64,000 bases of DNA from contig JBHOQL010000067.1 of the NCBI GenBank assembly GCA_042408195.1, positions 11,579 to 75,578 of the forward strand, given 5' to 3'. The notes below the pieces were generated by a model. The model was not told where the DNA came from, ran no database searches, and saw nothing but the letters and a program-made list of their open reading frames with translations. The translations under genes were made by a program, and so were the position numbers. Positions 17,823-43,218 of this stretch are shown piece after piece. Source of the DNA: Anaerolineae bacterium. Its GTDB lineage: Bacteria; Chloroflexota; Anaerolineae; SpSt-600. The stretch's first letter is position 1; every line of letters begins with the position of its first letter.

Positions 17823-18683
17823 TCAATAATTTGTAGTCTGGTCAATCAGGCCGCGCTCGCGGGCCAGGAAATCGCACAACTTGAAGGTGGCGAGGGCTGT
17901 TACACCGAAAAGGATTGAAAGGCCGAGCATTATTCCCAGGAGCTCTTCGTTGCTGAAAGAAGCGAGGGTGGAAAAAGTCCTGGAACCTTCTCCGAGCAAG
18001 GAACGGCGGATCAGTTCCAACCAGTAAGTTATGGGCATGATAAAGCCGATGGGGCGGAGCCAGCTTGGCAGAATCTCCAGCGGGAAAATTGCTCCACTGA
18101 AGAGGTAGAGGGCTCCTGCTACGGCTTCCCCTATTAAGAAAAAGTGATGGGCCACCAGGAGGCTAACATTAGCCAGTATGAGACCCATGAAGGCCAGCAT
18201 CACTATCCCCAGGGCCCAGGAAGAGAAGAGGAGAGGCCAATTCACCTGCATTGGGTTAATAGGCAAGTGAAGGAAAAGAACACCAGCCAGCAGGGTCACG
18301 AGCACTGCAAAGGAGCCTGTGAGGAAACGAGCTACCCCTCGGCCGAACCAATAGAGAGGAATGCGAACGGGAGCCACGTAAATATACTTCAAGGTGCGAT
18401 AATGTTCTCGGTCATCTATCACTGCCCAGGAAATTCCAGTCATGACGGAGCCTACATAAATGTAGAAGGCATTGCCTAGGTAAATATAGGGAAATACGGG
18501 TTCTCTGAACCGACCGCCCGTTATTACCCCATACATCACCACCAAAATTGCGGCCGAAGCGAGGGGTTTCACTATTGAGTAAATGGTGAAAAGCAGGGGA
18601 TCGGTCCAGTTGGACTCAATTTGCCATCCGAGCCACGTAGCCACCGCGAAAGAGCGCCAACCAGAAAGTAACCGGTTCTTCAT
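17823..18683 (-). CDS. ABC-2 type transporter permease
   Basis: 286 aa with six TM segments. It is the third gene of an ATPase-permease-permease operon. Confidence 0.7.
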   Translation of the reverse strand: MKNRLLSGWRSFAVATWLGWQIESNWTDPLLFTIYSIVKPLASAAILVVMYGVITGGRFREPVFPYIYLGNAFYIYVGSVMTGISWAVIDDREHYRTLKYIYVAPVRIPLYWFGRGVARFLTGSFAVLVTLLAGVLFLHLPINPMQVNWPLLFSSWALGIVMLAFMGLILANVSLLVAHHFFLIGEAVAGALYLFSGAIFPLEILPSWLRPIGFIMPITYWLELIRRSLLGEGSRTFSTLASFSNEELLGIMLGLSILFGVTALATFKLCDFLARERGLIDQTTNY

Positions 18684-19507
18684 CGTTGAATCTCCAGCAA
18701 CCTCCCCTCGCGTATGGCTTTCCTCTCCATGTAGTCCAGGAGGAGCCGGGCAGCCACAAGGAAGACCACGCTCAGCGCAGCCAAAGCAATTAATTCTATG
18801 TGGACATCCAGAAAGCCAAGGGTTGCTCCGGATGGGAAGAGCAACTGGCGCATGGCATCAAGGCCAAGGGTGAGGGGTATCAGGGAAGCCACTACAGCTA
18901 CCCAGAACCCCAAACTTTTGATGGGGAAGTAGAAACCGGAAAGAAGGTAGATGGGTTCCTGGGCTAAGCTGGCCAGGTGCCAAGCTTCTCGGCTCCAGAG
19001 GAGGAAGAGCGAAGCGTTCATCATTCCAAGTCCATACAGGGCTATAAGGGTGAGGAAGAAGGCGGTTATTAGGAGAGGGAGATTGGCGACAGAATATCGG
19101 ACATTGAACAGAAGACTCCCTACTAAAATGATCGTCCCTGCCCGAAGGGAAGTAGCTAACATCCCACCCAAAGCCATTCCCAGAAGGATCCCCATCTTGG
19201 GGGCAGGGGACATTATGAAGAGGGGGAGATTACCTGTTTCCTTTTCCCAGTAAAGCTGGGTGGACATGCTCCAGAGGACATTCAGCCAGAAGGCTGTCAT
19301 TGCTCCGCCCAGGACCACAAAGCCGATGTAATCTTCAGGGGCCCTGATGGCCCGGTAAATGAAAACGTAGGCCGAAACCGCCAGCATGGGCAGGAAAACG
19401 TCAAAGAAAAACCAAGATTTTTCCCGCTGCTGGCCTATGATCCTCGGATATGCCCGTGCAACCACTGTTTTCAAGAAGAGTTTCCACCCTTTAGCCTTGC
19501 CTTTCAT
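18680..19507 (-). CDS. ABC-2 type transporter permease
   Basis: 275 aa and polytopic. It overlaps the adjacent genes by 4 nt at each end. Confidence 0.7.
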   Translation of the reverse strand: MKGKAKGWKLFLKTVVARAYPRIIGQQREKSWFFFDVFLPMLAVSAYVFIYRAIRAPEDYIGFVVLGGAMTAFWLNVLWSMSTQLYWEKETGNLPLFIMSPAPKMGILLGMALGGMLATSLRAGTIILVGSLLFNVRYSVANLPLLITAFFLTLIALYGLGMMNASLFLLWSREAWHLASLAQEPIYLLSGFYFPIKSLGFWVAVVASLIPLTLGLDAMRQLLFPSGATLGFLDVHIELIALAALSVVFLVAARLLLDYMERKAIREGRLLEIQR

Positions 19508-20505
19508 TCTTTTGCCTCTTTGAAAGGCCGACCCACCAGCTCTACGAACACATCCTCTAAGGTGGGCTCCCTCTTAGTGAGGTGGCGCACCTGGACCGAG
19601 TGCGCCGTCAGAGTATGGATTACCTCTGCCAGGGCCGCCTCTTCGTTCAGGACCAAGGCCAGTTTAGCACCACCATCAGTTTCAGATATAGAAGCGCGGC
19701 GAACTCCAGAAATGGACTCCAGGGCTTCTTGGGTCAAATCATTAGGGTAAGTGATGTCCAGTTCAAAGATGGATTCCCGACGGAGGCGCTGTTTTAAAGC
19801 AGCCGGTGAATCGCAGGCCACAATTCTGCCTTGGTCAATTATAGCTACCCGGTCACATAATTCATCGGCTTCCTGCATGTAATGGGTGGTGAGCAGTATG
19901 GTTCGGTCCGGGTGTTCTTCCAGCCATTCTTTTATAAACTGCCGGATCTGGCGGGCGGCGTTCACGTCAAGGCCCAAAGTTGGCTCATCCAGAAATAGGA
20001 TTTCGGGGTCCGTAAGGAACCCCCGGGCAACGTTCATCTTCTGGCGCATTCCGGTGGAAAGCTGGGATAATTTAGTGTGCATCCAGTCAGCGAGGCCCAT
20101 CCGGCGTAGGAGCTCCTCAATTCGGCGGTTGGCTTCGGAAGTAGGAATACCGTAGAACTGAGCGAACATCCAGAGGTTTTCCCTGACGGTGAGCAATCCA
20201 TAGCCGGAGGTTTCTCCACCGGACACCATGTTGATTATCGGGCGAACTTTGTGAGCTTCTCGAACCACATCAAAGCCTGCAACCCATGCTCTTCCGGAAC
20301 TTGGTGCCAGCAGGGTGGTAAGGATTTTTATGAGGGTAGTTTTACCTGCACCATTGGGACCCAGAAGGCCGAAAAGCTCGCCCTTAGCTATCTCTAGGTT
20401 GACATCTCTCAGGGCTATGACCTCCTTCCGGGGTTTACGGCGGCCCCCCTGTACAGTGTATATTCGCCAGAGGTTCTCAGTCTTTATAGCCCAGTCGTAA
20501 GTCAT
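19504..20505 (-). CDS. ABC transporter ATP-binding protein, DrrA-like (ABC-2 exporter ATPase)
   Basis: Walker A GPNGAGKTT, signature LSTGMRQK, Walker B ILFLDEP and a C-terminal DrrA-type domain. Confidence 0.85.
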   Translation of the reverse strand: MTYDWAIKTENLWRIYTVQGGRRKPRKEVIALRDVNLEIAKGELFGLLGPNGAGKTTLIKILTTLLAPSSGRAWVAGFDVVREAHKVRPIINMVSGGETSGYGLLTVRENLWMFAQFYGIPTSEANRRIEELLRRMGLADWMHTKLSQLSTGMRQKMNVARGFLTDPEILFLDEPTLGLDVNAARQIRQFIKEWLEEHPDRTILLTTHYMQEADELCDRVAIIDQGRIVACDSPAALKQRLRRESIFELDITYPNDLTQEALESISGVRRASISETDGGAKLALVLNEEAALAEVIHTLTAHSVQVRHLTKREPTLEDVFVELVGRPFKEAKE

Positions 20506-20602
20506 GGCCCCATCCTGTTTTGGTCGTCGGGAAAATTATATTGTAACAACTTTACTGCAGCAAGTCCGGTTTCTTTAGTGCGTGGGGAATTCTCCCTTCG
20601 TG

Positions 20603-20611
20603 TGGTATAAT
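20603..20611 (+). promoter_or_regulatory. Candidate extended -10 promoter element (TGGTATAAT) for the regulator gene
   Basis: Seen in the divergent 128-bp intergenic region, about 22 nt upstream of the ATG at 20634. Purine-rich RBS-like sequence follows it. Confidence 0.35.
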
Positions 20612-20633
20612 AAAGGCAAGGGGTGAGATAATA

Positions 20634-23600
20634 ATGGAAAGAGTGCTGCTCAGGGTAAAGCTACTGCCCCCGCGTCTAACTAAACGAGTGCTGGTCCGCC
20701 CGCGCCTGATTCAGCAGCTTCTCGAGGCTCTAAATTACCGTTTGACCATCCTACAAGCAGGGGCTGGTTACGGCAAGAGCACAGCTCTGGCAACTTTGGC
20801 CGAACAGGGGATACCTATCGTCTGGTATCAGCTGGAGCGGGAAGACAGCGACCCAGCCCTTTTTCTTTTCTACCTCATCCACGGCTTTCGCTCCCTATTT
20901 CCCGATGGTTTCGAGCTTGCTTTGGCTTTCATCGAGGAGCATTCCGATCAGTTCCGTCCAACCCTGGTTCTAGATATATTGCTGGACGAATTAGCCAAAC
21001 GGATCACCTCTCCCCACTTCTTCGTCCTGGATGATGCTCACTTCCTGAGAGAATCCCCGGAGACCTTGCGGCTTCTGGACCGCTTCATCGCCCATTCACC
21101 ACCGGATCTACATACAATCCTTTCCACCCGCTACGCTCTCAATCTGCCTACTCTGATCCGTTGGAAAGCCCACGGAGAGGTTTTGGAGATCCGGCAGGAA
21201 GATTTAGCTTTTACCCCTGAGGAAATAAAAGCCCTTTTCCTTCGGAAATATCGGCTATTCCTTAGCCCGTCTGAGATCGCTTTGCTGGCTGAGCGGACCG
21301 AAGGGTGGCCCATTGCTCTTCAACTTGTCTGGAAGGCTCTGCAGAGCCGTATCACTCCGAACCTCTCCCGGGCCCTTGAGCAGGTAACTGGCCCTACTGA
21401 AAGTCTCTTCCTTTACCTGGCCCGTGAAGTTCTGGAGCAGCTAGAGCCGAGAGTACGGGATTTCCTCCTGAAGACGGCGGTTTTGCAGGAGTTATCGCCC
21501 TCCATTTGCGATTGCCTCTGCGAAACTACCGATAGCGTTTCCATCATCAATTATCTCATGGAAAATGGCCTTTTCATTGTGGACCTCGGGGAAGGCCTTT
21601 TCCGTTACCATCACTTGTTCAGGGAGTTCCTCTACCATCAACTCTCGCCCCAGGAGGCCAGAGAGGCTCATTTGCGGGCTGCCAAGTGTTTTACGAAGAT
21701 GGGTGATGAAGCCAAAGCTGTTCACCATTTCCTGGCTGCGCAGGCCTGGGAAGAGGCTGCCGCAATAATTGATAACTTGGGCCGGGATATGGTGCAGGCA
21801 GGCAGGCTTGAGACTCTTTCCCAGTGGCTTGGTATGATTCCGCCAGAAGTGCTGGCAGCTCATCCAGCGTTGTTAATCTACCTTGGGGACATAGCCCGCC
21901 TTCGGAGCCGTTTCCATGAAGCCCTTGGCTGGTATCAGCAGGCTGAAGAACGCTACCGTCTTAGAGGCGATAATCGGGGGGTTGGCCAGGCTCTGAGGGG
22001 AAAGGCCCGTGTCTATCTGGACACTGTGGATCCGGTCCAGGCGGAGCGATACCTCCAGGAGGCCCTTCGCCTTGCCGATGGGCAGGAGGACAGGGAGAGC
22101 TTTGCTCGCTTGCTGGAGCTCCTGGCAGAAAACCAGCTCAATCTGGGTCGTCCCGAGGAAGCAGAGCGATTGCGTGCACAGGCCCGTACTCTCCGAGAAG
22201 AGGGGCCGGGAGAGGCCGAATTGGCTGTCCGTGTGCTCCTGCGCACCGGCCGGCTCAACGAAGCTCGTCGCCTCTTGGAAGAGCAGGCAGAGAGGGAGCG
22301 TCGGGAACCTGTGCTCAGGCCCCGGGCCCACCGGGAAACCTTGCTCATCCTCTCCCTTGTGCTGGCTTTCCAGGGGGAGGCCGAAGCAGCTTACTATTGC
22401 GCTGTAGATGGCACAAAGCGGGGGCAGCTCCTCAATTCCCCCTTCGTTACTGCAGTGGGTTACATGAGACAGGGGCATTCCTGGCTCATAAGAGACGACC
22501 CAGATGGATATTCTCAGGCATGTCGTTGCTATCAGGAAGCCATAGCCATAAGTGAGGACCTTGCCGTCCCGCGCTTAAAGGTGGAAGCCTTCTGGGGACT
22601 TTGTCGAGCTCATGGCTTCAATGGGGAGTTGGATGCTGCTCTAGAAGCGGCTCACAAGGGGATAGAAATTGCCCAGCGGGCTGGAGATGAATGGATAACC
22701 GCACTGATCAGGGTCTCCATGGGGGCAGGGTATGTCCTGGCCGGTGAGTACAACTTAGCTGTAGATTGGCTTTCCCGAGCTCTAAATTCCTTTAGGGAAT
22801 GCAGTGACCCATACGGGGAGGCTGTTGCCAGGTTATGGCTCTGTCTAACGTGGTGGCGTAAGAAAGACCAGGCCCGGTTGAGGCGGGATTCTGAGGAGCT
22901 TCTCAGTTTGGTTCACAGCCACGGCTACGATTACCTTTTCACCAGAAGGACGCTCTTGGGACCTCCTGATCCCCGCATGGCGGTCCCAATACTGCTTTAT
23001 GCCCGTGACTCTGGCCTTCATCCCGCATGTGTGGATCGTCTCCTCAAGTCCTTGGGACTGGAGAAGACGGAAGTCCACCCGGGTTACCAGCTTAGGGTAC
23101 AAACCCTTGGGCCGTTCAGGGTTTGGCGGGGAACAAAGGAAATTTCTCCATCGGAATGGCGCCGTGAGAAAGCTCGGAGGCTCTTTCAAGTCTTAATAAC
23201 TTACCGGCGCACTATGCTAGATCGGGACCAGATTCTGGAAATGCTCTGGCCCGACCTGGACCCCGAAACAGCCAAACGGGATTTCAAAGTAGCTCTCAGC
23301 ACCCTGTGCAAAGTCCTGGAGCCTGAGCGTCAGGAAGGGATGCCTTCGGCTTACATAATTCGGGATCGTTCCCGGTACGGACTCAGACCAGGGGCCGACA
23401 TTTGGCTGGATGTGGAAGAGATGGAAAAAGAGATAACCAGTGGGGACAAGCTCCTAAACTTAGAGCCCGATAAAGCCCTGGAGCACTATAAGCGTGCGCT
23501 TGTCCTTTACGGTGGGGACTACCTGGAAGATTGCCTTTACGAATCTTGGTGCAGCGAGGAAAGGGAGAGAATTCTGATCCTCTACCTTCGCACAGCTGAG

Positions 23601-23858
23601 AGAGTAGCAGAGCTTCTGGCCCGTAAGGAAGTATGGGATGAGGTTCTTAACGTTTGCCGGGCCATTTTAGCTCGGGATCCTTGCTGGGAGCAAGCTTACC
23701 GCTGGATGATGCTGGCCTATGCCCGCACTGGCCGTAGGGCTCAGGCCTTGAAAACCTATAGGAAATGCGTGGAGCGGCTCCGCAAAGAGCTCCAAGTAGA
23801 CCCCTCCCCTGCCACCGTTCAGCTATACGAAGAAATCCGCAACGCCCGCCTTCAGTAA
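20634..23858 (+). CDS. Large transcriptional regulator. It has an N-terminal STAND/MalT-like P-loop ATPase, central TPR-like helical repeats, and a C-terminal OmpR-type winged helix plus BTAD (SARP/DnrI/AfsR-family activator domain).
   Basis: 1074 aa. The P-loop is QAGAGYGKST. The C-terminus LRVQTLGPFRVWRGTKEISPSEWRREKARRLFQVLITYRR...DQILEMLWPD has the SARP DNA-binding signature, followed by a BTAD helical region (...AYARTGRRAQALKTYRKCVERLRKELQVDPSPAT). Confidence 0.8.
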   Translation: MERVLLRVKLLPPRLTKRVLVRPRLIQQLLEALNYRLTILQAGAGYGKSTALATLAEQGIPIVWYQLEREDSDPALFLFYLIHGFRSLFPDGFELALAFIEEHSDQFRPTLVLDILLDELAKRITSPHFFVLDDAHFLRESPETLRLLDRFIAHSPPDLHTILSTRYALNLPTLIRWKAHGEVLEIRQEDLAFTPEEIKALFLRKYRLFLSPSEIALLAERTEGWPIALQLVWKALQSRITPNLSRALEQVTGPTESLFLYLAREVLEQLEPRVRDFLLKTAVLQELSPSICDCLCETTDSVSIINYLMENGLFIVDLGEGLFRYHHLFREFLYHQLSPQEAREAHLRAAKCFTKMGDEAKAVHHFLAAQAWEEAAAIIDNLGRDMVQAGRLETLSQWLGMIPPEVLAAHPALLIYLGDIARLRSRFHEALGWYQQAEERYRLRGDNRGVGQALRGKARVYLDTVDPVQAERYLQEALRLADGQEDRESFARLLELLAENQLNLGRPEEAERLRAQARTLREEGPGEAELAVRVLLRTGRLNEARRLLEEQAERERREPVLRPRAHRETLLILSLVLAFQGEAEAAYYCAVDGTKRGQLLNSPFVTAVGYMRQGHSWLIRDDPDGYSQACRCYQEAIAISEDLAVPRLKVEAFWGLCRAHGFNGELDAALEAAHKGIEIAQRAGDEWITALIRVSMGAGYVLAGEYNLAVDWLSRALNSFRECSDPYGEAVARLWLCLTWWRKKDQARLRRDSEELLSLVHSHGYDYLFTRRTLLGPPDPRMAVPILLYARDSGLHPACVDRLLKSLGLEKTEVHPGYQLRVQTLGPFRVWRGTKEISPSEWRREKARRLFQVLITYRRTMLDRDQILEMLWPDLDPETAKRDFKVALSTLCKVLEPERQEGMPSAYIIRDRSRYGLRPGADIWLDVEEMEKEITSGDKLLNLEPDKALEHYKRALVLYGGDYLEDCLYESWCSEERERILILYLRTAERVAELLARKEVWDEVLNVCRAILARDPCWEQAYRWMMLAYARTGRRAQALKTYRKCVERLRKELQVDPSPATVQLYEEIRNARLQ

Positions 23859-23895
23859 CTACTTTGTAACTCTTTTGTAACCGTTTGGTTATAAA
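23855..23895 (+). promoter_or_regulatory. Candidate SARP-box promoter: three GTAAC-containing heptamers at 11-bp periodicity (23855, 23866, 23877), with the last repeat 8 bp upstream of a TATAAA -10 at 23890-23895
   Basis: Read from the sequence cAGTAACtacTTTGTAACtctTTTGTAACcgtttggtTATAAAat. The geometry (11-bp repeat phasing, 8-bp gap to the -10) is the established arrangement for SARP-activated promoters. A regulator with a SARP domain is encoded immediately upstream. Confidence 0.45.
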
Positions 23896-23929
23896 ATTTT
23901 TTCTGCTTACAAAGCAGAGGAGGTTAACC

Positions 23930-24694
23930 ATGCGGCTCAAGGACAGAGTCGCTCTCATCACAGGTGGAGCTGTGGGCATAGGCCAAGCTACAGCTTTCCG
24001 TTTCGCCGAAGAAGGTGCCATAGTTATAATCTGTGATGTGAACGAAGAAGCGGGCCGCCAGACTGCCGCTCAGCTTGGAGACGAAACCCGTTTCTACAAA
24101 GTAAACGTGGTTGACAGGAAAGCGGTCCAGGCCTGGGTGGACGATGTGGCTGCTCGCTTCGGCAGGATTGATATCCTCGTAAACAATGCCGGCATCCTGC
24201 GGGACGCCCTGCTGGTGAAGTACAAAGACGGCCAGGTAGTGGGTCAGATGTCTGAGGAAGATTTTGACCTGGTCATCGCTGTCAATCTCAAGGGAGTTTT
24301 CAACTGCACCCAGGCCGTCGTGCCCTACATGATACGGCAGGGCGGTGGAGTAATCCTCAATGCTTCCTCCGTTGTGGGAATAGATGGCAACTTCGGCCAG
24401 ACCAACTACGTGGCTTCAAAAGCTGGCGTCATCGGAATGACTAAAGTGTGGGCCAGGGAACTGGCAAGGTACAATATCCGGGTCAACGCTGTTGCCCCTG
24501 GTTTCATCCTAACCGATATGGTCCGCCAGATGCCGGAGAAAATCCTTGAGCAGATGAAAGCTCGCATCCCCTTGGGCCGCCTGGGGGATCCGAGAGATGT
24601 AGCCAACGCTTACCTCTTCCTGGCCTCTGATGAAGCCTCTTATATTACGGGAACCGTGCTTCGTGTAGATGGTGGCATCGTGGTGGGTACCTAA
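23930..24694 (+). CDS. Short-chain dehydrogenase/reductase, FabG-like 3-oxoacyl reductase
   Basis: The Rossmann motif is ITGGAVGIGQA. The catalytic motifs are NNAG and S...YVASK. I chose the internal ATG at 23930 with RBS GAGGAGG upstream. Confidence 0.85.
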   Translation: MRLKDRVALITGGAVGIGQATAFRFAEEGAIVIICDVNEEAGRQTAAQLGDETRFYKVNVVDRKAVQAWVDDVAARFGRIDILVNNAGILRDALLVKYKDGQVVGQMSEEDFDLVIAVNLKGVFNCTQAVVPYMIRQGGGVILNASSVVGIDGNFGQTNYVASKAGVIGMTKVWARELARYNIRVNAVAPGFILTDMVRQMPEKILEQMKARIPLGRLGDPRDVANAYLFLASDEASYITGTVLRVDGGIVVGT

Positions 24695-24705
24695 GGAGGC
24701 AGAGC

Positions 24706-26232: not shown

Positions 26233-26256
26233 AAGAGTCAGGACGAGGAGGTCAAT

Positions 26257-28052: not shown

Positions 28053-28065
28053 GGAGGAGATCCAT

Positions 28066-29616: not shown

Positions 29617-29627
29617 GGGGGTGCATT

Positions 29628-30689: not shown

Positions 30690-30692
30690 CAT

Positions 30693-33088: not shown

Positions 33089-33897
33089 TGCCGAAGGTAG
33101 AGGTTAACGGCATCCAACTTTACTATGAACTGCACGGCCCGAAAGAGGCCGAAGTCTTGGTGCTCTCCAATGGAATCATCATGAGCACTGCCGGATGGGT
33201 CTTCCAGACCCGCGAGCTGTCCAAGCATTACCGGCTGCTGCTCTACGATTGCCGGGGAATGTGGCAATCGGACCATCCTCCAGGCCCTTACTCCATGGAG
33301 CAGCATGCCGATGACCTGGCTGGCCTGCTGGATGCCCTCGGAATCGAGAAAGCCCATATCGGTGGCATCTCCTATGGGGGTGAAATAAGCATGACTTTCG
33401 CCCTCCGCTATCCGGAGCGAACTCTGAGCCTGATTGTGGCCGATTCCGTTAGCTACGTGGATCAATGGCTGCGAACCATAGTGGAAGGCTGGATCGCAAT
33501 AGCCCGCGCTAAGGATCCCAAAGCCTTCTTCTGCGCCACCGTTCCCTGGAACTTTTCCCCCCGCTTCATCCAGGAACACCCCGACCTTATGGCCCAAGCC
33601 CTTGAACGCTATGCCCTGCTGGACTACGATGCTTTCATAAGGCTTTGCGAATGCTTCCTCCGCCTGGACCTAACTGAAAAGCTAAAGGATATAACTGCTC
33701 CCACGTGCGTGATGGTTGGCGAGCATGATCTCCTTAAGGGAAGAAGGTATGCAGAGGAGATCGCTCGCCGGATTCCCGGGGCTGAACTTTACATAATACC
33801 AGGTGCTGGGCATGCTACCTGCTGGGAAAACTTTGAAGTTTTCAACGCCATCGTCCTCGGTTTCCTTGCCCGGCACCGCCAAACTAAACAAAACTGA
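33088..33897 (+). CDS. Alpha/beta-hydrolase fold protein, paralog 3
   Basis: 269 aa. The nucleophile elbow is GISYGG and a C-terminal His sits in GAGHATCWE. It is clearly paralogous to the 26257-27060 product (shared N-terminal MPKxxVNxIx and PGPY motifs). Confidence 0.8.
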   Translation: MPKVEVNGIQLYYELHGPKEAEVLVLSNGIIMSTAGWVFQTRELSKHYRLLLYDCRGMWQSDHPPGPYSMEQHADDLAGLLDALGIEKAHIGGISYGGEISMTFALRYPERTLSLIVADSVSYVDQWLRTIVEGWIAIARAKDPKAFFCATVPWNFSPRFIQEHPDLMAQALERYALLDYDAFIRLCECFLRLDLTEKLKDITAPTCVMVGEHDLLKGRRYAEEIARRIPGAELYIIPGAGHATCWENFEVFNAIVLGFLARHRQTKQN

Positions 33898-33908
33898 GGA
33901 GGAGTACC

Positions 33909-35255
33909 ATGCGTAACAAAAACTTGGTGGGGCTTGCTGTAGCTCTCATCGCAGGGCTGTCGCTGGTGCTGGCCTCGTGCAAGCCGGCTCCAACTCCTAC
34001 GCCTACTCCTGTCCCGCCAACCCCGACTCCTACACCTGCGCCTGCCCCCAGCCCCACGCCGACAGCTCCCCAGTATCCGTTCGCCGGGAAGCCCCTGAAG
34101 ATAGGTCTCCTGACCGATAACTCTGGGCCGCTGGCCATTTACGGGCCAATGTTGGAGAGGGGCTTTGAGCTCGGCCTGGAATACGCCACCAACGGCACAA
34201 TGGAAGTAGCCGGAAGGCCCATCAAAGTGATCATCAAAGATACTTCCAGCGACCCCGAGAAAGGCGTCAGTCAAGCACGTGAGCTTATTGAGGCCGAAGG
34301 GGTAGAAATACTGGTAGGGCCTCCCAGTTCTGGCGTCGCCATGGCCGTTCAGAAGATCGCTGAAGAATACAAAGTTATCTTAATTGTCGAACCGGCCGCC
34401 GCTACCGACATAACCGGCAAGAACTTCAACCCTTACACCTTCCGCACCAGCCGGACTTCTTACCAGGATGCTATTGTAATGGGCCAAGGCTTGCTGCAAT
34501 TGGGCAAAACCTTCGTCCAAATCGCTCCGGACTACGCTTTTGGCTGGGCTTCGGCCTGCGGCTTCTATGCTGTGATAAAGGCTGGCGGGGGTACTTTCCC
34601 CGTCAACGATACACCTCAGGGCTGCGGTGCCATCTTCATCCCCTTTGACACAACTGACTTCACCCCTTACCTCCAGCAGGTTCTGGACTCCGGGGCGGAA
34701 GTGCTCATCATAACTTGGGCTGGCGCGGGCTTCGTACCTCTCTTTAAGCAAATGCAGGAGCTGGGTGTCTTTGACAAAATGGTCGTCGGGACTGGCATCG
34801 GCGACAACCAGACCCTGGCGGCAGGCTACGCCAATGCCGTCGGCTCCACTGGAATTATTGTCTACCATTACACCCTCCCCAAGAACCCCGTCAATGACTG
34901 GTTGGTCAAGCGCCACAAGGAGAAATACGGGACTCCGCCAGACCTCTTCACCGCCGGTGGTATGGCTGCTGCCATCATGGTTGTGGAAGGGCTGAAGCGC
35001 ACGAACGGCGATGCCAGTGCAGATGCGCTCATCAAGGTCTACGAGGATAACTTCTCTTTTGATGGTCCCAACGGCAAATACATAATCCGGCCGTACGACC
35101 ACGTCTGTCTCTACCCGCTCTACTATGTCCGCTTGACCAACGTCACCGACCCCGAGTTCAGGTTCGTGGAACTGATCAAGGAGTTCGCTCCTGAAGAGGC
35201 AGCGCCGCCGTGCCTGCTGCCGGACCAGTACAAGGATCGCTGCCCCAAGGAGTAA
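33909..35255 (+). CDS. ABC transporter substrate-binding lipoprotein, LivJ/branched-chain-amino-acid-binding family (periplasmic-binding-protein type I)
   Basis: 448 aa. It has a lipoprotein signal (LVLASC) followed by a Pro/Thr-rich linker (PTPTPTPVPPTPTPTPAPAPSPTPT), then a Leu/Ile/Val-BP-like fold. Confidence 0.75.
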   Translation: MRNKNLVGLAVALIAGLSLVLASCKPAPTPTPTPVPPTPTPTPAPAPSPTPTAPQYPFAGKPLKIGLLTDNSGPLAIYGPMLERGFELGLEYATNGTMEVAGRPIKVIIKDTSSDPEKGVSQARELIEAEGVEILVGPPSSGVAMAVQKIAEEYKVILIVEPAAATDITGKNFNPYTFRTSRTSYQDAIVMGQGLLQLGKTFVQIAPDYAFGWASACGFYAVIKAGGGTFPVNDTPQGCGAIFIPFDTTDFTPYLQQVLDSGAEVLIITWAGAGFVPLFKQMQELGVFDKMVVGTGIGDNQTLAAGYANAVGSTGIIVYHYTLPKNPVNDWLVKRHKEKYGTPPDLFTAGGMAAAIMVVEGLKRTNGDASADALIKVYEDNFSFDGPNGKYIIRPYDHVCLYPLYYVRLTNVTDPEFRFVELIKEFAPEEAAPPCLLPDQYKDRCPKE

Positions 35256-35315
35256 CCCAGCGAAACCCGCGGGGGAGGAGGGGACTCCTCCCCCGCCACC
35301 TTCGGAGGACCGCAT

Positions 35316-36071
35316 ATGGAACCACAGGTCGTCCTGGAAACTAGGAACCTGCGTAAAGAGTTTGACGGCCTTGTAGCTGTTGACAATGTTTCCCTGAAGG
35401 TTAGGGAAGGACAGCTGCACGCCATAATCGGCCCCAATGGTGCTGGCAAAACCACTCTGTTCAACTTGATAAGCGGTGTATTTCCTCCTACTTCGGGGCG
35501 GATATTCCTCCGCGGAGAGGATATAACTGGCCTCCCACCTTACCAAATAGCTCGCAAAGGTATAGGTCGTTCCTTTCAGATAATCAACCTTTTCCCAAAC
35601 CTAACGGTGCTGGAAAGCGTAAGTTTGGCGGTGCAGGCCCGCGGTCCCCACAGTTTACATTTCTGGCGCCCCTACCACCTATATCGGGAATACGAAGAAA
35701 AGGCTGTGGAAATAATCCGCAAAGTGGGGCTTGCTGGCCGCGAGTATTTCCTGACGCGTGTCCTACCCCACGGAGACCAACGAAAACTGGAAATTGCTCT
35801 CCTCCTGGCAATGGAGCCCGACATTCTCCTTCTGGACGAGCCCACGGCTGGAATGGCCTCCGCGGAGGTCCCTATCATTATGGACCTCATATCCCGCTTG
35901 CGGAATGAAGGAAGGCACACTATCCTGCTGGTGGAGCACAAGATGGATGTAGTGATGAGCCTGTCCGATATTATCACCGTTATGCACCAAGGCAGGATAC
36001 TGGCAGAAGGGACACCCGAAGAAATAAAAGCAAACGAGGAAGTCCAGCGGGCCTATCTTGGTGAACTTTGA
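35316..36071 (+). CDS. ABC transporter ATP-binding protein, LivG-like
   Basis: Walker A GPNGAGKTT, signature and Walker B LLLDEPTAGM are present, with a LivG-type C-terminus. Confidence 0.85.
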   Translation: MEPQVVLETRNLRKEFDGLVAVDNVSLKVREGQLHAIIGPNGAGKTTLFNLISGVFPPTSGRIFLRGEDITGLPPYQIARKGIGRSFQIINLFPNLTVLESVSLAVQARGPHSLHFWRPYHLYREYEEKAVEIIRKVGLAGREYFLTRVLPHGDQRKLEIALLLAMEPDILLLDEPTAGMASAEVPIIMDLISRLRNEGRHTILLVEHKMDVVMSLSDIITVMHQGRILAEGTPEEIKANEEVQRAYLGEL

Positions 36072-36789
36072 GGAGGTAAAATTGGAGCCCATCTTGGAAG
36101 TGCGTGACATTCATACATTTATCGGCCAGTTTCACATCCTTCAGGGCGTATCCTTGACCGTTCCAGCAGGGAGCGTGACGGCTCTTCTTGGGCGCAACGG
36201 TGCGGGCAAAACCACCACTCTTAAATCCATCCTCGGCCTGACCCCCCCTCGAAGTGGCAAAATAATCTTCGCTGGGGAAGAAATCCAAGGACGCCGGCCC
36301 TACGAAATCGCTTCAATGGGCATAGGCTATGTCCCCGAGCACAGAGCCATATTCACCCAGCTCACCGTGGAGGAGAATCTCCGCATCGCCGAACGCCGTA
36401 AGGGCGATCTGAAGCGCAGAGCCGATTTCATCTTCACCCTCTTTCCCGACCTCAAGCGGCTGTATAAACTTCCAGCTGGAAATCTTTCCGGTGGACAACA
36501 GCAGATGCTGGCTATCGCGAGGGCCCTCGTCCCAGATAATCGCTTGTTACTGATAGATGAGCCCAGCGAAGGTCTGGCGCCCATCCTAGTACGCGAACTT
36601 ATGGAAGCTATCCGGCAGCTCTCTGCTGAAGTCACAATTCTCTTGGTGGACCAGAATTTCCAGATGACCAGCTCCCTGGCCAGCCATTACACCCTAATTG
36701 ACGATGGCCACACCGTCCGCAGCGGGCTGATGTCCGATTTACTCAAAGAGCCTGAGACTATCCGCCGCTACCTGGGCGCTGTGGTATAG
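36058..36789 (+). CDS. ABC transporter ATP-binding protein, LivF-like
   Basis: Walker A GRNGAGKTT, signature LSGGQQQM and Walker B LLIDEPSEGL are present. Confidence 0.85.
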   Translation: MVNFEEVKLEPILEVRDIHTFIGQFHILQGVSLTVPAGSVTALLGRNGAGKTTTLKSILGLTPPRSGKIIFAGEEIQGRRPYEIASMGIGYVPEHRAIFTQLTVEENLRIAERRKGDLKRRADFIFTLFPDLKRLYKLPAGNLSGGQQQMLAIARALVPDNRLLLIDEPSEGLAPILVRELMEAIRQLSAEVTILLVDQNFQMTSSLASHYTLIDDGHTVRSGLMSDLLKEPETIRRYLGAVV

Positions 36790-36800
36790 GAGGGATTATA

Positions 36801-38294
36801 ATGAAAGCTTACCGCGAAACCATCGTTTCTATCCTCATAGTTTTAAGCATAATTTTGCTTACCTACTGGCTCTTTGGACCTTCAAAAGCGACCGCCACTC
36901 TTCTGTCTGGCCTCACTTTGGCCTCCCTTTATTTCCTTCTGGGTGCAGGTCTCTCCCTAATTTTCGGGCTCATGGATGTGCTGAACTTTGCTCATGGGAT
37001 AATCTTTATGATAGGGGCCTACATAGGCTACACCATCTACGGGAATCCCCGTCTCATCCTCAACACCTTGCCTCTCTTCCTGAACTTGGGGGCTGGTATA
37101 ATTACAGGTATTTTCATCAAGCAATTGCTGAACCGGCAGGGAATTGGAGGAGTAAATGGGCGACTTTTCACCTTTGTCGCAGCTTTCGTAGGCATCGCCG
37201 TTCTAATCTGGGGAGTTAAGGGATTCCCTCTGCGTCCTCTGGTCGCCTTTGAACCCACAACCCCAGGAGGGGCTGTCCCTACTGCTCTCGCTCAAGAACC
37301 GATATCCCGCATGGCAGCGCGCCTTGGATGGATGGCTCTCTCCGGAGTGCTGCTCGGTTTAGCATTGAGGTTCCGGGGGAGAGGGGAAATAAGGTCTAAG
37401 GACTTCGTCCGTTACATTTCTTATGTGCTGGGCCTCACCGCAGCTGCCTTTTCCGTCCTTTTCATTCGCAACATAGCGGAACGGTTCCTTCTAGGACTTT
37501 CCACTGATATTCGCTTTATATTAGCCATGCTTGCCGGTGCTGCTGCCGGGGCTCTAATTGGCGCACTGATTGAAACTTCTTTCATCCGGCCTTTCTACGG
37601 CCGCCCTATCACCCAGATAGTCCTCACCTTAGGGTTAATGTTTGCGGGGGGAGAGCTGGTCAAAGCTATATGGGGAAAAGAAGGCCGTGCTCCAATGCCC
37701 GCCCTTTCCCTGTTTGCCCAAAGCTGCCGTTCCCCTAACCTAATAGCTTGGCTGAGAGAGCATTGCTCTTCTATAGACGTGCTTGGGAGAGCTTTCCCCA
37801 CTTACAGGATTTTCATAATTTTCATTGGCGTGTTAATCCTGATCAGCATTACGCTGCTTTTGCGGTACACCCGTCTCGGGTTGATCGTGCGGGCTGGTGT
37901 TCAGGACAGGGAGATGGTGGAAGCTCTGGGGATCAATGTTCGGCGCGTTTTCACTACGGTCTTCGCCATCGGTTCGGCATTGGCAGCGTTCGGAGGCGTA
38001 GTAGCTGCTCCTTTTGTAGGTGTCTATCCCGATATGGGGGGTATATTCCAGCTGCAAGCTTTCATTGCTGTGGTCATCGGAGGGATGGGGAGTTACACCG
38101 GAACCGCTGTCGGCTCCCTTATCCTGGGGTTAGCCAGGGCGTTCGGTGATACTCTGGTAACCACAGGGATTGCCCTTCCGGGCATGGCCTATGTCTGGCG
38201 AGCTTCTCCGGCCATTGCCCGCGCCTCAATTGTCCTGATAATGGCCATAGTGCTCTTAGTGCGACCTGCCGGCATATTCGGAAAGAAGGGGTAA
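36801..38294 (+). CDS. ABC transporter permease, LivH-like (unusually long, 497 aa)
   Basis: Polytopic with a BPD_transp_2-type composition. It is about 200 aa longer than typical LivH, with extra TM and loop segments in the middle. Confidence 0.7.
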   Translation: MKAYRETIVSILIVLSIILLTYWLFGPSKATATLLSGLTLASLYFLLGAGLSLIFGLMDVLNFAHGIIFMIGAYIGYTIYGNPRLILNTLPLFLNLGAGIITGIFIKQLLNRQGIGGVNGRLFTFVAAFVGIAVLIWGVKGFPLRPLVAFEPTTPGGAVPTALAQEPISRMAARLGWMALSGVLLGLALRFRGRGEIRSKDFVRYISYVLGLTAAAFSVLFIRNIAERFLLGLSTDIRFILAMLAGAAAGALIGALIETSFIRPFYGRPITQIVLTLGLMFAGGELVKAIWGKEGRAPMPALSLFAQSCRSPNLIAWLREHCSSIDVLGRAFPTYRIFIIFIGVLILISITLLLRYTRLGLIVRAGVQDREMVEALGINVRRVFTTVFAIGSALAAFGGVVAAPFVGVYPDMGGIFQLQAFIAVVIGGMGSYTGTAVGSLILGLARAFGDTLVTTGIALPGMAYVWRASPAIARASIVLIMAIVLLVRPAGIFGKKG

Positions 38295-38298
38295 TGCC

Positions 38299-39399
38299 AT
38301 GAGGGAACTCACCCTTAATCTCTTTAAAACCCTGAAAACCTGGCGCTGGAATTTGCTGCTGCTGGCTTTGCTCATCGTTTTCCCTTTCGTTGGAGGATTG
38401 CTCTTAGGCGACCCGGCTGCTGTGGACCCGCACCTAAGGGGGGTTAACCGGATTTTAGCCCTGGCGGAGACGGGATATGCTAAGTTCTGGCAAGGCATGA
38501 TAATCCAAATGCTTATACTGGGTGTCTTCGCCATGAGTTACGATTTGCTCTTGGGCTATACAGGCATACTCTCGTTCGGCCACGCAATGTTCTACGGGAC
38601 TGGGGGTTACGTACTCGGTCTGTTGGTCAAACATGCCCACTGGTCTATATGGGAAGCGATAGGGGCCGTCATCCTCGTAGCGTTGCTCCAGAGCCTCGTT
38701 ATCGGCGCTCTTTCCCTACGGGTGCGAGGTGTTTACTTGGCAATGGTGACTCTGGCCTTTGCTGAATTTTTCTACATCTTGGCCGAAGCCACAGATTTCC
38801 GCCATTACACCGGAGCCGACGATGGCTTGCATGGGATTTACCCGCCGCCGATCTTGAGTCCAACCACCCACCGCACTAACTTCTACTTTTTCACCCTGGC
38901 TTTCTTCATAGTGATGTATCTGGCTGCGCACCGCCTGGTGAACTCACCCACCGGTAAAGTTATGGTAGCTATTCGCGAAAACGAGGCACGCACTGCAATG
39001 CTAGGTTACAACACATTTATTTACAAACTAATAGCCCTTACAGCGTCAGGGACGATGGCTGCGCTGGCCGGTTCCTTCAATGCTCTCTTCAACTTAGGCA
39101 TCACCCCTTCAGTCCTGAGTGTGAGCACCACCATAGAAGTGATAGCAATGACGATAGTTGGTGGGGTGGGAACGCTCATAGGGCCGGTATTAGGGGCGGC
39201 AATTGTGCACCTTCTCGGCTATTGGCTGAACCGGTTCTTCGGCCCGGCCTGGCTGCTTGCTTTTGGAGTTGCCTTCGTGCTTATCGTAATATTCCTTCCT
39301 TACGGAATTGTGGGCACGTGGAGGGCTCGCAGTTTCCAGTGGAAACAAACCTGGCGACGTTATATACAACAGGTCACTTCTCGCTTATCTCTCAAATAA
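38299..39399 (+). CDS. ABC transporter permease, LivM-like
   Basis: 366 aa and polytopic. It is the last gene of the operon and is followed by a terminator. Confidence 0.8.
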   Translation: MRELTLNLFKTLKTWRWNLLLLALLIVFPFVGGLLLGDPAAVDPHLRGVNRILALAETGYAKFWQGMIIQMLILGVFAMSYDLLLGYTGILSFGHAMFYGTGGYVLGLLVKHAHWSIWEAIGAVILVALLQSLVIGALSLRVRGVYLAMVTLAFAEFFYILAEATDFRHYTGADDGLHGIYPPPILSPTTHRTNFYFFTLAFFIVMYLAAHRLVNSPTGKVMVAIRENEARTAMLGYNTFIYKLIALTASGTMAALAGSFNALFNLGITPSVLSVSTTIEVIAMTIVGGVGTLIGPVLGAAIVHLLGYWLNRFFGPAWLLAFGVAFVLIVIFLPYGIVGTWRARSFQWKQTWRRYIQQVTSRLSLK

Positions 39400-39421
39400 C
39401 TGCACTGCTATCAGCTCAAGA

Positions 39422-39457
39422 AGCCAGGAGTTAAAGGCTCCTGGCTTCGTTGTTTTT
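39422..39457 (+). terminator. Rho-independent terminator (9-bp GC-rich stem AGCCAGGAG/CTCCTGGCT, 7-nt loop, U-rich tail)
   Basis: Read from the sequence AGCCAGGAGTTAAAGGCTCCTGGCTTCGTTGTTTTT, about 22 nt after the livM-like stop. Confidence 0.55.
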
Positions 39458-39570: not shown

Positions 39571-39927
39571 TTGCTTAACCAGTATCTTTTCGTGGGCATT
39601 CTGATGCTGATGGCTCTAGCGGTTCCCCTGATAGGCATAGGTTTCGCCTGGCTTATACGCCCCAAGAGACCAAACCCCATAAAGCAATCCATATACGAGT
39701 GTGGCCTTGAAACCATCGGCGAAACATGGGTGCAGTTTAAAGTCCAATACTACATCTATGCTCTTATCTTCGCCATCTTCGACGTAGAAATAGCCTTCCT
39801 TCTGCCCTGGGCTGTGGCCTACAACAAACTTGGGCTTGTAGCCCTTTTGGATGTCTTCATCTTCCTTGGTATCCTCTTGGTAGCTCTGGCCTATGCCTGG
39901 CGCAAAGGGGCATTGGTTTGGAGGTGA
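39571..39927 (+). CDS. nuoA: NADH-quinone oxidoreductase subunit A
   Basis: 118 aa with three TM segments. YECGLE and the LPWA motif are typical of NuoA/ND3. The start is probably TTG. Confidence 0.85.
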
Positions 39928-39931
39928 AATT

Positions 39932-40947: not shown

Positions 40948-40962
40948 CGGAGGAAAAGACTC

Positions 40963-43202: not shown

Positions 43203-43218
43203 AGGCGAGGGATGGAAA

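Follow-up and report, generated by a model that had tools for sequence, protein, structure and literature searches.

An import, esterase, and CoA-activation operon of Anaerolineae with an altered FabH-like enzyme and a probable catabolic role

The 64,000-nucleotide (nt) stretch of contig JBHOQL010000067.1 from an Anaerolineae bacterium (phylum Chloroflexota), referred to here as the window, carries a plus-strand operon that encodes coenzyme A (CoA) ligases, α/β hydrolases, a FabH-like enzyme, and a Liv-type ATP-binding cassette (ABC) importer. Based on the gene content of this operon and on its conservation in other genomes, we conclude that it is probably a substrate-inducible uptake and catabolic operon of a conserved, uncharacterized family, in which an imported small esterified carboxylic acid would be converted to acetyl-CoA by R-specific β-oxidative cleavage. 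The catabolic assignment is supported by genomic context, not by a characterized ortholog. A first-pass annotation of the same DNA had preferred a biosynthetic cluster and had allowed for a catabolic role. The comparative evidence reverses this order, since the importer, the esterases, the CoA-activating enzyme, and the FabH-like enzyme travel together across phyla and into archaea, since glyoxylate shunt genes occur in some copies of the operon, and since the dehydrogenase looks like an NAD-type enzyme. We share the earlier view that the pathway works on CoA thioesters without an acyl carrier protein (ACP). The pathway also appears to be undescribed, as had been supposed: no characterized ortholog was found, and within the library searched no publication was found describing either the operon or the subfamily of FabH-like proteins with a Cys/Thr/Tyr active site. 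Syntenic clusters assigned by experiment to a known catabolic route were looked for, and none was found.

Operon layout and conservation

Gene calls are from an open reading frame (ORF) map, and domain calls are from Pfam scans of all 18 proteins of the cluster, which comprises the operon, a regulator gene upstream of it, and three exporter genes. The plus-strand gene string runs from position 23885 or 23930 to position 39399, with junctions of -14 to +60 nt. It contains 14 genes rather than the 16 first reported, and the gene list behind that earlier count also totals 14. The order is short-chain dehydrogenase/reductase (SDR), ligase 1, hydrolase 1, FabH-like enzyme, ligase 2, hydrolase 2, ligase 3, MaoC, hydrolase 3, and then the importer, in which a Peripla_BP_6 binding protein is followed by two ATPases and two BPD_transp_2 permeases. 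Pfam confirms the families originally named, namely, an SDR, three paralogous ANL ligases, three hydrolases, a FabH-like enzyme, a double-hotdog MaoC, and a five-gene Liv importer. The features of the operon are as follows (PDB, Protein Data Bank; aa, amino acids).

23930 to 24694, plus strand: FabG-like classical SDR (adh_short_C2, 2.7e-71), putatively an NAD-dependent (R)-3-hydroxyacyl-CoA dehydrogenase
24706 to 26232, plus strand: ANL acyl-CoA ligase 1 (AMP-binding, 5.7e-88; best PDB match feruloyl-CoA synthetase 8WEU/8WEV, 6e-121, 41% identity)
26257 to 27060, plus strand: hydrolase 1, Ser carboxylesterase type (Abhydrolase_1, 2.4e-36; GHSLGG)
27057 to 28052, plus strand: 3-ketoacyl-ACP synthase III (KAS III, FabH)-fold enzyme with a Cys/Thr/Tyr active site, the signature gene (ACP_syn_III, PF08545, and ACP_syn_III_C, PF08541)
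28066 to 29616, plus strand: ANL acyl-CoA ligase 2 (AMP-binding, 2.4e-86; best PDB match 8WEU, 6e-120, 42% identity)
29628 to 30689, plus strand: hydrolase 2 (abh2), 353 aa, with a large cap insertion (Abhydrolase_1 and Abhydrolase_6; GHSMGG)
30693 to 32216, plus strand: ANL acyl-CoA ligase 3, an accessory module with MaoC (AMP-binding, 1.9e-85; best PDB match 8WEU, 1.8e-129, 44% identity)
32213 to 33088, plus strand: double-hotdog MaoC of the (R)-specific enoyl-CoA hydratase type, accessory (MaoC_dehydratas, 3.3e-29, two stretches)
33088 to 33897, plus strand: hydrolase 3, Ser carboxylesterase or enol-lactonase-like (Abhydrolase_1, 3.8e-25; GISYGG)
33909 to 35255, plus strand: lipoprotein substrate-binding protein (SBP), Liv/HAAT type (Peripla_BP_6, 2.5e-69; signal peptide with LASC lipobox, Pro/Thr linker)
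35316 to 36071, plus strand: LivG-type ABC ATPase (ABC_tran and BCA_ABC_TP_C)
36058 to 36789, plus strand: LivF-type ABC ATPase (ABC_tran, 1.8e-32)
36801 to 38294, plus strand: LivH-type permease, 497 aa, with an N-terminal extension (BPD_transp_2, 1.7e-31)
38299 to 39399, plus strand: LivM-type permease (BPD_transp_2, 6.9e-38)
39420 to 39457, plus strand: intrinsic terminator closing the operon (13-bp stem at 39420 to 39448 with 7 GC pairs, then the T tract GTTGTTTTTG)

The SDR most likely starts at the ATG at 23930, which follows GGAGG (the alternative start is at 23885). The terminator, a 13-bp stem and T tract where a single strong terminator had been predicted, is the strongest such site that the terminator scan found between 20400 and 39700, and a promoter and terminator scan found neither a promoter nor a terminator inside the operon that is strong above shuffle expectation. 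As had been claimed, no polyketide synthase (PKS), nonribosomal peptide synthetase (NRPS), or ACP is found among the cluster genes in the ORF map and the Pfam scans of the 18 proteins, and there is no room for one. The same Pfam scans detect no terpene synthase or other dedicated scaffold-forming enzyme, and an Rfam scan detects no RNA element in the cluster.

When one genome was scanned for each GTDB species, at least 216 were found to encode a relative of the FabH-like protein, and the best 80 loci were kept. The window proteins were mapped by tblastn onto 85 loci, unmatched ORFs were clustered, and the component counts given here rest on the 44 loci that have at least 9 kb on both sides (well-flanked loci). 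Conservation of gene order, which the first-pass annotation had proposed as a check, is clear in this collection. The FabH-like proteins of the 80 best loci are 72 to 94% identical to that of the window, and nearly all of these loci are from Anaerolineae or other Chloroflexota, with some from Acetothermia and Fraserbacteria. One carrier is a metagenome-assembled genome of Anaerolinea thermophila (L029). Hundreds of relatives are 77 to 93% identical, the source-labeled ones being from Anaerolineae or Chloroflexi, and relatives labeled Acetothermia are 85% identical. Every well-flanked locus has at least one hydrolase (44/44) and ligase 2 (44/44), which among matched genes comes directly after the FabH-like gene in 39. 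The SDR is present in 39/44 relatives (79 to 81% identical in Acetothermia and Fraserbacteria), the regulator is kept upstream of the operon in 35/44, and the binding protein is found in at least 27/44, an SCPx-type thiolase in 25/44, a DUF35 protein in 20/44, ligase 3 in 12/44 (usually beside the MaoC gene), and MaoC in 11/44. Malate synthase and isocitrate lyase are encoded together in 3/44 well-flanked loci, and four loci (L069, L077, L080, and L085) have the two genes mid-operon. Pfam confirms the thiolase, DUF35, malate synthase, isocitrate lyase, and single-domain MaoC genes in these relatives.

The commonest order is regulator, FabH-like enzyme, ligase 2, hydrolase, thiolase, DUF35 protein, (hydrolase), SDR, ligase, hydrolase, binding protein, and transporter. 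The contigs of a 93%-identical relative have the full window layout, including the exporter. An Acetothermia contig carries an SDR, a ligase, a hydrolase, the FabH-like enzyme, a ligase, an SCPx-type thiolase, a DUF35 protein, a hydrolase, and LivHMGFK, and it lacks the regulator, the exporter, MaoC, and the third ligase. In L056 and L057, an acetyl-CoA hydrolase/transferase fused to a Peripla_BP_6 domain (e.g., L057:6685-9150) takes the place of ligase 1.

Two local variations were seen among the relatives. In L002, a close relative (1.57-Mb contig) whose FabH-like protein is 92% identical, transposase-related genes interrupt ligase 2 (L002:11017-13775) and the regulator is split into two ORFs (L002:3589-6812), from which we judge this to be a locally decayed copy of the operon. 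In 10 loci, a gene for a 23S_rRNA_IVP (four-helix-bundle) protein lies between the FabH-like gene and ligase 2 (e.g., L038:10884-11390).

An exhaustive search of 50%-identity representatives shows that the FabH-like family of the window is one tight cluster, after which the next relatives drop to 40 to 48% identity. These next relatives share the Cys, the Thr in place of His, the Tyr in place of Asn, and an extra Cys, whereas the ordinary FabH proteins lower in the list have Cys/His/Asn. The archaeal members are from Thermofilum adornatum, T. pendens, Infirmifilum, Sulfolobales, Njordarchaeia, Thaumarchaeota, and Odinarchaeota, and the distant bacterial members are from Caldisericia, Thermotogaceae (including Fervidobacterium riparium), Nitrospiraceae, Ignavibacterium, and Spirochaetia. 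In Thermofilaceae, the context is an SDR, an HTH_10 regulator, a ligase, two hydrolases, LivGF, LivHM, the FabH-like gene, and a binding protein. In Sulfolobales, it is a hydrolase, a binding protein, permeases, ATPases, the FabH-like gene, a family III CoA-transferase, a hydrolase, an HTH_10 regulator, an SCPx thiolase, and an SDR. The Fervidobacterium context consists of the FabH-like gene, a tandem-TetR regulator, an acetyl-CoA hydrolase/transferase, a binding protein, ATPases, a permease, and a permease-hydrolase fusion. This fusion (L087:15186-16892; 568 aa) joins a LivM-type permease to a complete α/β hydrolase domain, which suggests that hydrolysis may be coupled to import. A Caldisericia locus (L090) and a metagenome contig (L089) have hydrolase(s), the FabH-like gene, an SDR, a binding protein, ATPases, permeases, a tandem TetR, and a CoA-transferase. 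Their SDRs are 50 to 52% identical to the window SDR, in L089 the hydrolase that adjoins the FabH-like gene shares 54% identity with hydrolase 2, and counterparts of hydrolase 3 that are 38 to 40% identical are found in archaeal and Caldisericia loci.

Taken together, a Liv importer, hydrolase(s), the FabH-like enzyme, and a ligase or CoA-transferase are present in 5/5 distant contexts, and an SDR is present in 4/5, while the regulators vary by lineage (HTH_10, tandem TetR, or a fusion of a signal transduction ATPase with numerous domains [STAND] to a Streptomyces antibiotic regulatory protein [SARP] module). Judged by these gene contexts, the conserved unit is an importer, esterase-type hydrolases, a CoA-activating enzyme (with ligase and transferase interchangeable), a Cys/Thr/Tyr FabH-fold enzyme, and, usually, an apparently NAD-type FabG-like SDR. 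By the same comparison, the thiolase/DUF35 pair, MaoC with the third ligase, and the glyoxylate shunt appear as add-ons. A conserved unit under lineage-specific regulators is the signature of a nutrient-uptake and catabolic operon.

The FabH-like enzyme

The FabH-like protein can be aligned with solved FabH structures over its full length, and its AlphaFold2 model (pLDDT, 92.5) has Foldseek template modeling (TM) scores of 0.86 to 0.91 to FabH structures. Compared with true FabH and BioZ, the model gives a TM score of ~0.9 at 30 to 33% identity. FabH structures are matched at 1e-50, OleA structures are matched at ~1e-12, and the 3-hydroxy-3-methylglutaryl-CoA synthase (HMGCS) structure 6ESQ is a weak match. 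The active site is modified, as the first-pass annotation had recognized. The Cys is kept (C115; NSACAGW), but HQAN has become TQLN and GNTSAAS has become GYTGSPC, so that Thr (T256) occupies the catalytic His position and Tyr (Y286) occupies the catalytic Asn position, a change that 113 relatives all share. Over 114 member sequences, 34 positions are at least 95% conserved; these include the Cys, the Thr, the Tyr, and a second Cys located five residues past the Tyr. A sister group has Asn at the His position.

The protein is therefore without the Cys-His-Asn triad of decarboxylative Claisen condensation, and since His and Asn are replaced, decarboxylative condensation with malonyl-ACP is not expected of it. 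Having the FabH fold without the triad, it should not be filed as FabH, and automated "FabH" and "FabG" annotation of these operon genes is misleading. Proteins of the FabH/BioZ/PqsC/PqsD/CerJ/DpsC type have the same fold and a nucleophilic Cys in the same motif, and the CoA-stacking Trp of FabH appears to be conserved. The FabH family proper keeps His and Asn, in contrast to the window family, which has Thr and Tyr and occurs also in archaea, always within importer/esterase operons. To our knowledge, archaea lack ACP-dependent fatty acid synthesis. No ACP gene that would point to partnership with a type II fatty acid synthase is found in the cluster, and members of the subfamily are encoded in archaeal importer operons. 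A housekeeping FabH/FabG role was rejected because of the missing His and Asn, the archaeal members, and the operon context.

We know of no characterized member of the Cys/Thr/Tyr subfamily. The FabH-like enzyme is the sole thiolase-fold protein in the window copy of the operon. If the operon is self-sufficient, this enzyme would have to carry out either C-C cleavage or CoA-dependent acyl transfer. The possibility that downstream genes supply the missing thiolase and DUF35 protein was rejected, because the genes downstream are a nuo operon. In many relatives, a KAS III/HMGCS-like protein, an SCPx-type thiolase, and a DUF35 protein are encoded in one operon, an arrangement reminiscent of the PhlACB acetyltransferase and of the archaeal thiolase/HMGCS/DUF35 complex. 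The likeness is an apparent one, and in these relatives the thiolase/DUF35 pair lies apart from the FabH-like gene. For relatives that have the pair, a three-protein complex of this kind is a lead. An obligatory PhlACB- or HMGCS-like complex was rejected, since the pair is absent in the window and in 19/44 relatives, from which it follows that the FabH-like enzyme is independent of it.

We tentatively propose that the FabH-fold proteins with Cys/Thr/Tyr(/Cys) may form a new class of the thiolase superfamily, CoA dependent and either cleaving or trans-thioesterifying, at the heart of an ancient catabolic module for import, ester hydrolysis, and CoA activation. Conceivable activities of such a class would be that of a retro-Claisen "KAS III-type thiolase" or thiolysis of oxo-esters straight to acyl-CoA. 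A KAS III fold with Thr and Tyr for His and Asn that is encoded in uptake operons, archaeal ones included, may stand for a reaction type of the superfamily that has not yet been described. If this proposal is correct, the module would be common to hyperthermophilic archaea, Thermotogota, Caldisericota, Acetothermia, and Chloroflexota and could scavenge polyester or hydroxy-acid ester fragments released by other microbes.

A different use of the same fold would be salvage, in which a precursor acid is imported as an ester, freed, activated with CoA, and transferred by the FabH-like protein, acting as a Cys-only acyltransferase, to an acceptor in the cell, for instance, a lipid, a protein, or the precursor of a cofactor. 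KAS III folds that lack the decarboxylation residues are often acyltransferases (CerJ, DpsC, and ChlB6 types), BioZ- and BioH-like similarities are among the weak matches, and Fervidobacterium has a minimal set of importer, hydrolase, CoA-transferase, and FabH-like enzyme, with no SDR or thiolase in the stretch seen. However, the glyoxylate shunt genes, the thiolase/DUF35 pair, MaoC, and the apparently NAD-type SDR are hard to fit to salvage, control of an importer operon by STAND, TetR, or HTH_10 regulators looks like induction by a nutrient, and no acceptor-related gene is conserved nearby. We consider salvage very improbable.

Proposed pathway and substrate

In the catabolic route that we propose, the MalT-like STAND regulator would sense the substrate or an intermediate, and its C-terminal SARP module would bind 11-nt-spaced GTAAC repeats and activate the promoter. 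The lipoprotein SBP and the LivHMGF-type transporter would bring in a small carboxylic acid ester, the three Ser α/β hydrolases would cut its ester bonds in the cytoplasm, and the ligases (or, in other lineages, CoA-transferases) would form CoA thioesters. MaoC would hydrate 2-enoyl-CoA to (R)-3-hydroxyacyl-CoA, the NAD-type SDR would convert (R)-3-hydroxyacyl-CoA to 3-oxoacyl-CoA, and the FabH-like enzyme, by means of its conserved Cys, would yield acetyl-CoA through thiolase-like C-C cleavage or a related CoA-dependent acyl transfer. Breakdown to acetyl-CoA by way of (R)-3-hydroxyacyl-CoA and 3-oxoacyl-CoA without ACP is suggested by the permease-hydrolase fusion, the transferase-SBP fusion, the glyoxylate shunt genes, the putatively R-specific SDR/MaoC pair, and the archaeal hosts.

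By Pfam, the HAAT importer set is complete, with a Peripla_BP_6 SBP that has a lipoprotein signal, two permeases, and LivG and LivF ATPases. The lipoprotein signal fits an importer, as would be expected in a monoderm. The best PDB match of the SBP is a Rhodopseudomonas palustris SBP (3N0X/3NND, 2e-65), and no importer component reaches a substrate-specific NCBIfam equivalog. The pim and cou/aromatic-acid operons of R. palustris similarly place a HAAT importer with a Peripla_BP_6 SBP beside ANL ligases and β-oxidation-type enzymes. In contrast to the window operon, they have no esterases and no FabH-like protein, while the window operon has no acyl-CoA dehydrogenase or crotonase-type hydratase. 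The searches run found no ortholog of a characterized pim or cou protein among the operon proteins.

All three hydrolases have a Ser nucleophile elbow. The best PDB matches of hydrolase 1 are the esterases Est1 (6EB3/8V16, 3e-49) and TtEst (4UHC), and those of hydrolase 3 are MGS-M2 (4Q3L, 2e-39), Est1, and PcaD (2XUA, 2e-32), so that the metagenomic carboxylesterases Est1, MGS-M2, and TtEst account for the best matches of both. TtEst prefers short-chain esters. For hydrolase 2, both the best profile and the best fold match are to intracellular polyhydroxyalkanoate (PHA) depolymerases. The best NCBIfam model is that of the intracellular short-chain-length PHA depolymerase (NF050089, 1.4e-28), matched over residues 34 to 142 only and with 99.8 bits against a cutoff of 300, and the top Foldseek match is Bacillus thuringiensis PhaZ (8YNV, 5e-17, 22% identity). 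The GxSxG motif of the Bacillus intracellular polyhydroxybutyrate depolymerase PhaZ is common to all three hydrolases; PhaZ differs in lacking the cap insertion of ~150 residues, which is modeled with low confidence. Because the cap domain is poorly predicted (model pLDDT, 72), the fold matches of hydrolase 2 say little about its substrate.

The best PDB matches of the SDR are 4NBW (1.2e-92) and 4NBU, both FabG-like, and it matches the (3R)-hydroxyacyl-CoA dehydrogenase of yeast MFE-2 (2ET6) at 6e-64. An Asp after β-strand 2 in classical SDRs indicates NAD rather than NADP, and the Asp found at this position (IICDVNEE) makes the SDR look NAD dependent. The best PDB match of MaoC is PhaJ (1IQ6, 2.6e-25). 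The three ligases are paralogs that are 46 to 50% identical pairwise and keep the ANL core motifs. Type-2 (R-specific) β-oxidation is alike in having an MFE-2-like SDR, a PhaJ-like MaoC, and, in relatives of the operon, an SCPx-type thiolase with DUF35. It differs in that its multifunctional enzyme is fused, whereas the window has separate genes and no SCPx thiolase, and in that the window has, in addition, more ligases, three esterases, an importer of its own, and the atypical FabH-like enzyme.

The substrate leads disagree, and no search result names the substrate. Our leading guess is (R)-3-hydroxyalkanoate esters or oligomers, for example, PHA fragments. No hydratase is needed by the core, the dehydrogenase and the hydratase look like R-specific enzymes of the PhaB/PhaJ type, hydrolase 2 is PhaZ-like, though weakly, hydrolases 1 and 3 resemble carboxylesterases, and other lineages use CoA-transferases. 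CoA-transferases of the acetyl-CoA hydrolase/transferase family act on short (C2 to C5) acids.

Several points weigh against this substrate or against the catabolic route as a whole. The ligases are most like actinobacterial feruloyl-CoA synthetase (Fcs; 41 to 44% identity) and FadD13, and this likeness means that aromatic or medium-chain acids fit better than C4 hydroxy acids. The PhaZ likeness of hydrolase 2 is weak, at 22% identity with a poorly modeled cap, and serves as a functional lead only. With neither an acyl-CoA dehydrogenase nor a classical thiolase, the window copy lacks a complete pathway for ordinary fatty acids. That the FabH-like enzyme acts like a thiolase is purely inferred, and a KAS III-fold protein that has lost His and Asn could be an O- or N-acyltransferase instead. 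SARP-type output domains are known mainly from biosynthetic clusters. Finally, no characterized ortholog was found, and an NCBIfam scan gave no pathway-naming equivalog for any enzyme or transporter component.

The same catabolic layout could also act on a phenylpropenoid acid or ester (ferulate, p-coumarate, cinnamate, or a chlorogenate-type compound). The esterases would free the acid, the Fcs-like ligases would activate it, and MaoC and the SDR would shorten its side chain by CoA-dependent β-oxidation, after which the FabH-like enzyme would split aroyl-acetyl-CoA into aroyl-CoA and acetyl-CoA, a hydrolase would free the aromatic acid, and exit would possibly be via the ABC-2 exporter. The feruloyl-CoA synthetase 8WEU/8WEV is the best PDB match of all three ligases by ~30 orders of magnitude over the next, and the second-tier SBP matches (4EY3, 4EVQ, and 4F06) are R. 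palustris proteins that we take to bind aromatic acids. KAS III and type III PKS relatives often handle aroyl units, and the exporter adjoins this copy and its close relatives. However, MaoC would be essential for enoates yet is present in only 11/44 relatives, so that the core needs no hydration, and the crotonase-family partner (Ech) of an Fcs-type ligase is absent, with no crotonase-family gene detected by Pfam in the cluster. Elsewhere the ligase is replaced by enzymes of the acetyl-CoA hydrolase/transferase family, which act on short acids, and the glyoxylate shunt genes fit a substrate that gives acetyl-CoA only. The SBP bears no close similarity to CouP-type binders. Nor is the exporter conserved, and some hosts of the family are hyperthermophilic archaea, which are unlikely to meet plant phenolics. 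Given that MaoC is dispensable and that archaea and thermophiles are among the hosts, we rank a PHA-type substrate above a cinnamate-type substrate, which we consider unlikely.

In digesters, activated sludge, sediments, and hot-spring mats, few heterotrophs are as abundant, or as poorly understood, as the Anaerolineae. An operon that is present in at least 216 species-level genomes, most of them from this class, and has its own sensor-regulator probably marks a substrate important to the Anaerolineae niche, and naming this substrate would fill a gap in models of carbon flow in Anaerolineae-rich communities.

Regulator, exporter, and neighboring genes

The regulator, its candidate binding site, and the exporter lie upstream of the operon.

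20634 to 23858, plus strand: regulator, 1,074 aa (putative MalT-like STAND ATPase, tetratricopeptide repeat [TPR] sensor region, C-terminal SARP-type winged helix and BTAD)
23863 to 23897, plus strand: candidate regulator binding site, with direct repeats TTTGTAAC, TTTGTAAC, and TTTGGTTA at 11-nt spacing, overlapping the -10-like TATAAAAT
17823 to 18683, minus strand: ABC-2 permease of the exporter (Pfam ABC2_membrane, 4.7e-10)
18680 to 19507, minus strand: second ABC-2 permease of the exporter (Pfam ABC2_membrane, 1.9e-10; weak match to the DrrB subfamily)
19504 to 20505, minus strand: DrrA-like ABC ATPase of the exporter (ABC_tran and DrrA1-3_C)

The regulator had been described as a SARP-domain protein, and this is correct for its C-terminal BTAD and winged helix. 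It is, however, not a classical SARP as judged by its domain architecture, since its N-terminal half appears to be MalT-like STAND and TPR, and its SARP module is C-terminal (residues 817 to 1070 of 1,074) rather than N-terminal. Residues 5 to 484 match the NCBIfam MalT model (2.2e-70; 237.7 bits, equivalog cutoff 537), TPR_12 and TPR_MalT are also matched (TPR_MalT at 4.3e-8, under the gathering score), and WHD_MalT is recorded for orthologs. Residues 817 to 1070 match positions 26 to 267 of the AfsR model (2.1e-19), with BTAD at residues 925 to 1069 (Pfam, 4.6e-28) and a weak Trans_reg_C match (6.5e-4, under the gathering score). The order of an OmpR-type winged helix and then BTAD, which is the SARP hallmark, is present. 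The ~480 N-terminal residues of the regulator align with MalT and are followed by TPR repeats, but the regulator lacks the LuxR-type helix-turn-helix output of MalT, and its C-terminal ~250 residues align with the winged helix and BTAD of the large SARP AfsR, in which the domain order is the reverse. It also differs from both in having a Chloroflexota host and a target that looks catabolic. In L023, L026, L028, L032, and most other Anaerolineales loci, the STAND-SARP regulator appears ~100 codons longer after BTAD, with the approximate conserved stretch IRHIQS-EE-NF--W-EA-EF--RFVP; the window regulator has no such extension.

The repeats of the candidate binding site span 23863 to 23892, run into TATAAAAT, and lie in the 71-nt leader of the SDR gene. 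The first-pass annotation had reported a SARP-box-like repeat before the operon, and the pattern is indeed found, with 3 matches against 0.16 expected. SARP-dependent promoters likewise have direct repeats at 11-nt spacing that abut the -10 box. A (G/T)GTAAC repeat with the same 11-nt spacing has been retained ahead of the SDR gene in L001, L003, L006, L007, and L058 while the flanking bases differ, which supports this candidate as a real SARP-type operator. A small hairpin, CTGCTT-ACA-AAGCAG (23903 to 23917, plus strand), lies in the leader between the -10-like box and the ribosome-binding site.

The exporter is as first described, a three-gene ABC-2 system of a DrrA-like ATPase and two permeases divergent to the gene for the 1,074-aa regulator, on which Pfam and the ORF map agree. 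The ATPase scores 309.9 bits against TIGR01188 (drrA), with a cutoff of 312.45. The exporter adjoins the cluster in 3/44 well-flanked relatives (the near-identical L001 to L003) and is absent beside it in L006, which is the closest relative (94% identical FabH-like protein), and in L008 and L020. Because it is present only in the window and three near-identical relatives and is missing at L006, the exporter is probably an unrelated neighbor outside the conserved system. The genes upstream of the exporter are unrelated envelope genes.

These results bear on the biosynthetic reading, in which the ligases would load imported acids, the FabH-like enzyme would condense two CoA thioesters, the SDR and MaoC would process the β-keto group, and the product would leave through the DrrAB-like exporter under SARP control. 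In an Ole-like variant, the thiolase-fold enzyme, SDR, ANL ligase, and α/β hydrolase would act as OleA, OleD, OleC, and OleB and form a β-lactone or an olefin. A SARP-type output domain and its repeat are present, the exporter is next door in this copy, all four OleABCD protein families are in the conserved core, and OleA structures are detectable homologs of the FabH-like protein at ~1e-12. The DrrAB-like context had been taken as an argument for biosynthesis, but the exporter is adjacent in so few relatives, whereas the importer accompanies the genes in every lineage, including the archaea. The SARP context had been taken in the same way; from its sequence, however, the "SARP" part appears to be the output domain of a MalT-like STAND sensor. 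MalT-like STAND regulators typically switch on catabolic operons. Moreover, regulators are swapped across lineages while the enzymes and importer stay, and glyoxylate shunt and thiolase/DUF35 genes lie inside the operon in relatives. The distribution is near universal across Anaerolineales rather than patchy, with at least 216 species genomes, conserved synteny, and a module shared with archaea.

The Ole-like pathway was rejected because the nucleophile of the hydrolases, the class of the SDR, and the active site of the FabH-like protein do not fit it. OleB has an Asp nucleophile, OleA has a Cys/His/Asn pocket, and OleD is an SDR of the 3-β-HSD/extended type. In contrast, all three window hydrolases use Ser rather than the Asp of OleB and haloalkane dehalogenases, the SDR looks NAD-type and is classical FabG-like, with no 3Beta_HSD match in Pfam or NCBIfam, and the FabH-like protein lacks the His and Asn kept by OleA and is far closer to FabH than to OleA. 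We therefore regard a biosynthetic role as quite improbable, and for genome mining the lesson is that a SARP domain, an ABC-2 pump, and ligases are not sufficient to call a biosynthetic cluster.

The G+C content is ~0.53 and even over the whole window, so there is no sign that the block was acquired recently. Directly 3' of the operon terminator is a nuo operon with its own promoter-like site (39571 to 49807, plus strand) that encodes nuoA, B, C, D, H, I, J, L, M, and N, with nuoK outside the scan. The E, F, and G genes are absent between D and H, and the operon resembles the 11-subunit type without the NADH-oxidizing module. Elsewhere in the window, an Opp/Dpp-type peptide ABC importer (1672 to 9455; SBP_bac_5, two permeases, and an oligo_HPY ATPase) adjoins a LacI-family regulator. 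A cobalamin riboswitch (RF00174, 60.4 bits) at 56824 to 57032 on the minus strand precedes genes at 51121 to 56753 (minus strand) for a Peripla_BP_2 binding protein, an ABC ATPase, a CobT-like protein (DBI_PRT), and CobS, which together look like a B12-controlled operon for uptake and nucleotide-loop salvage.

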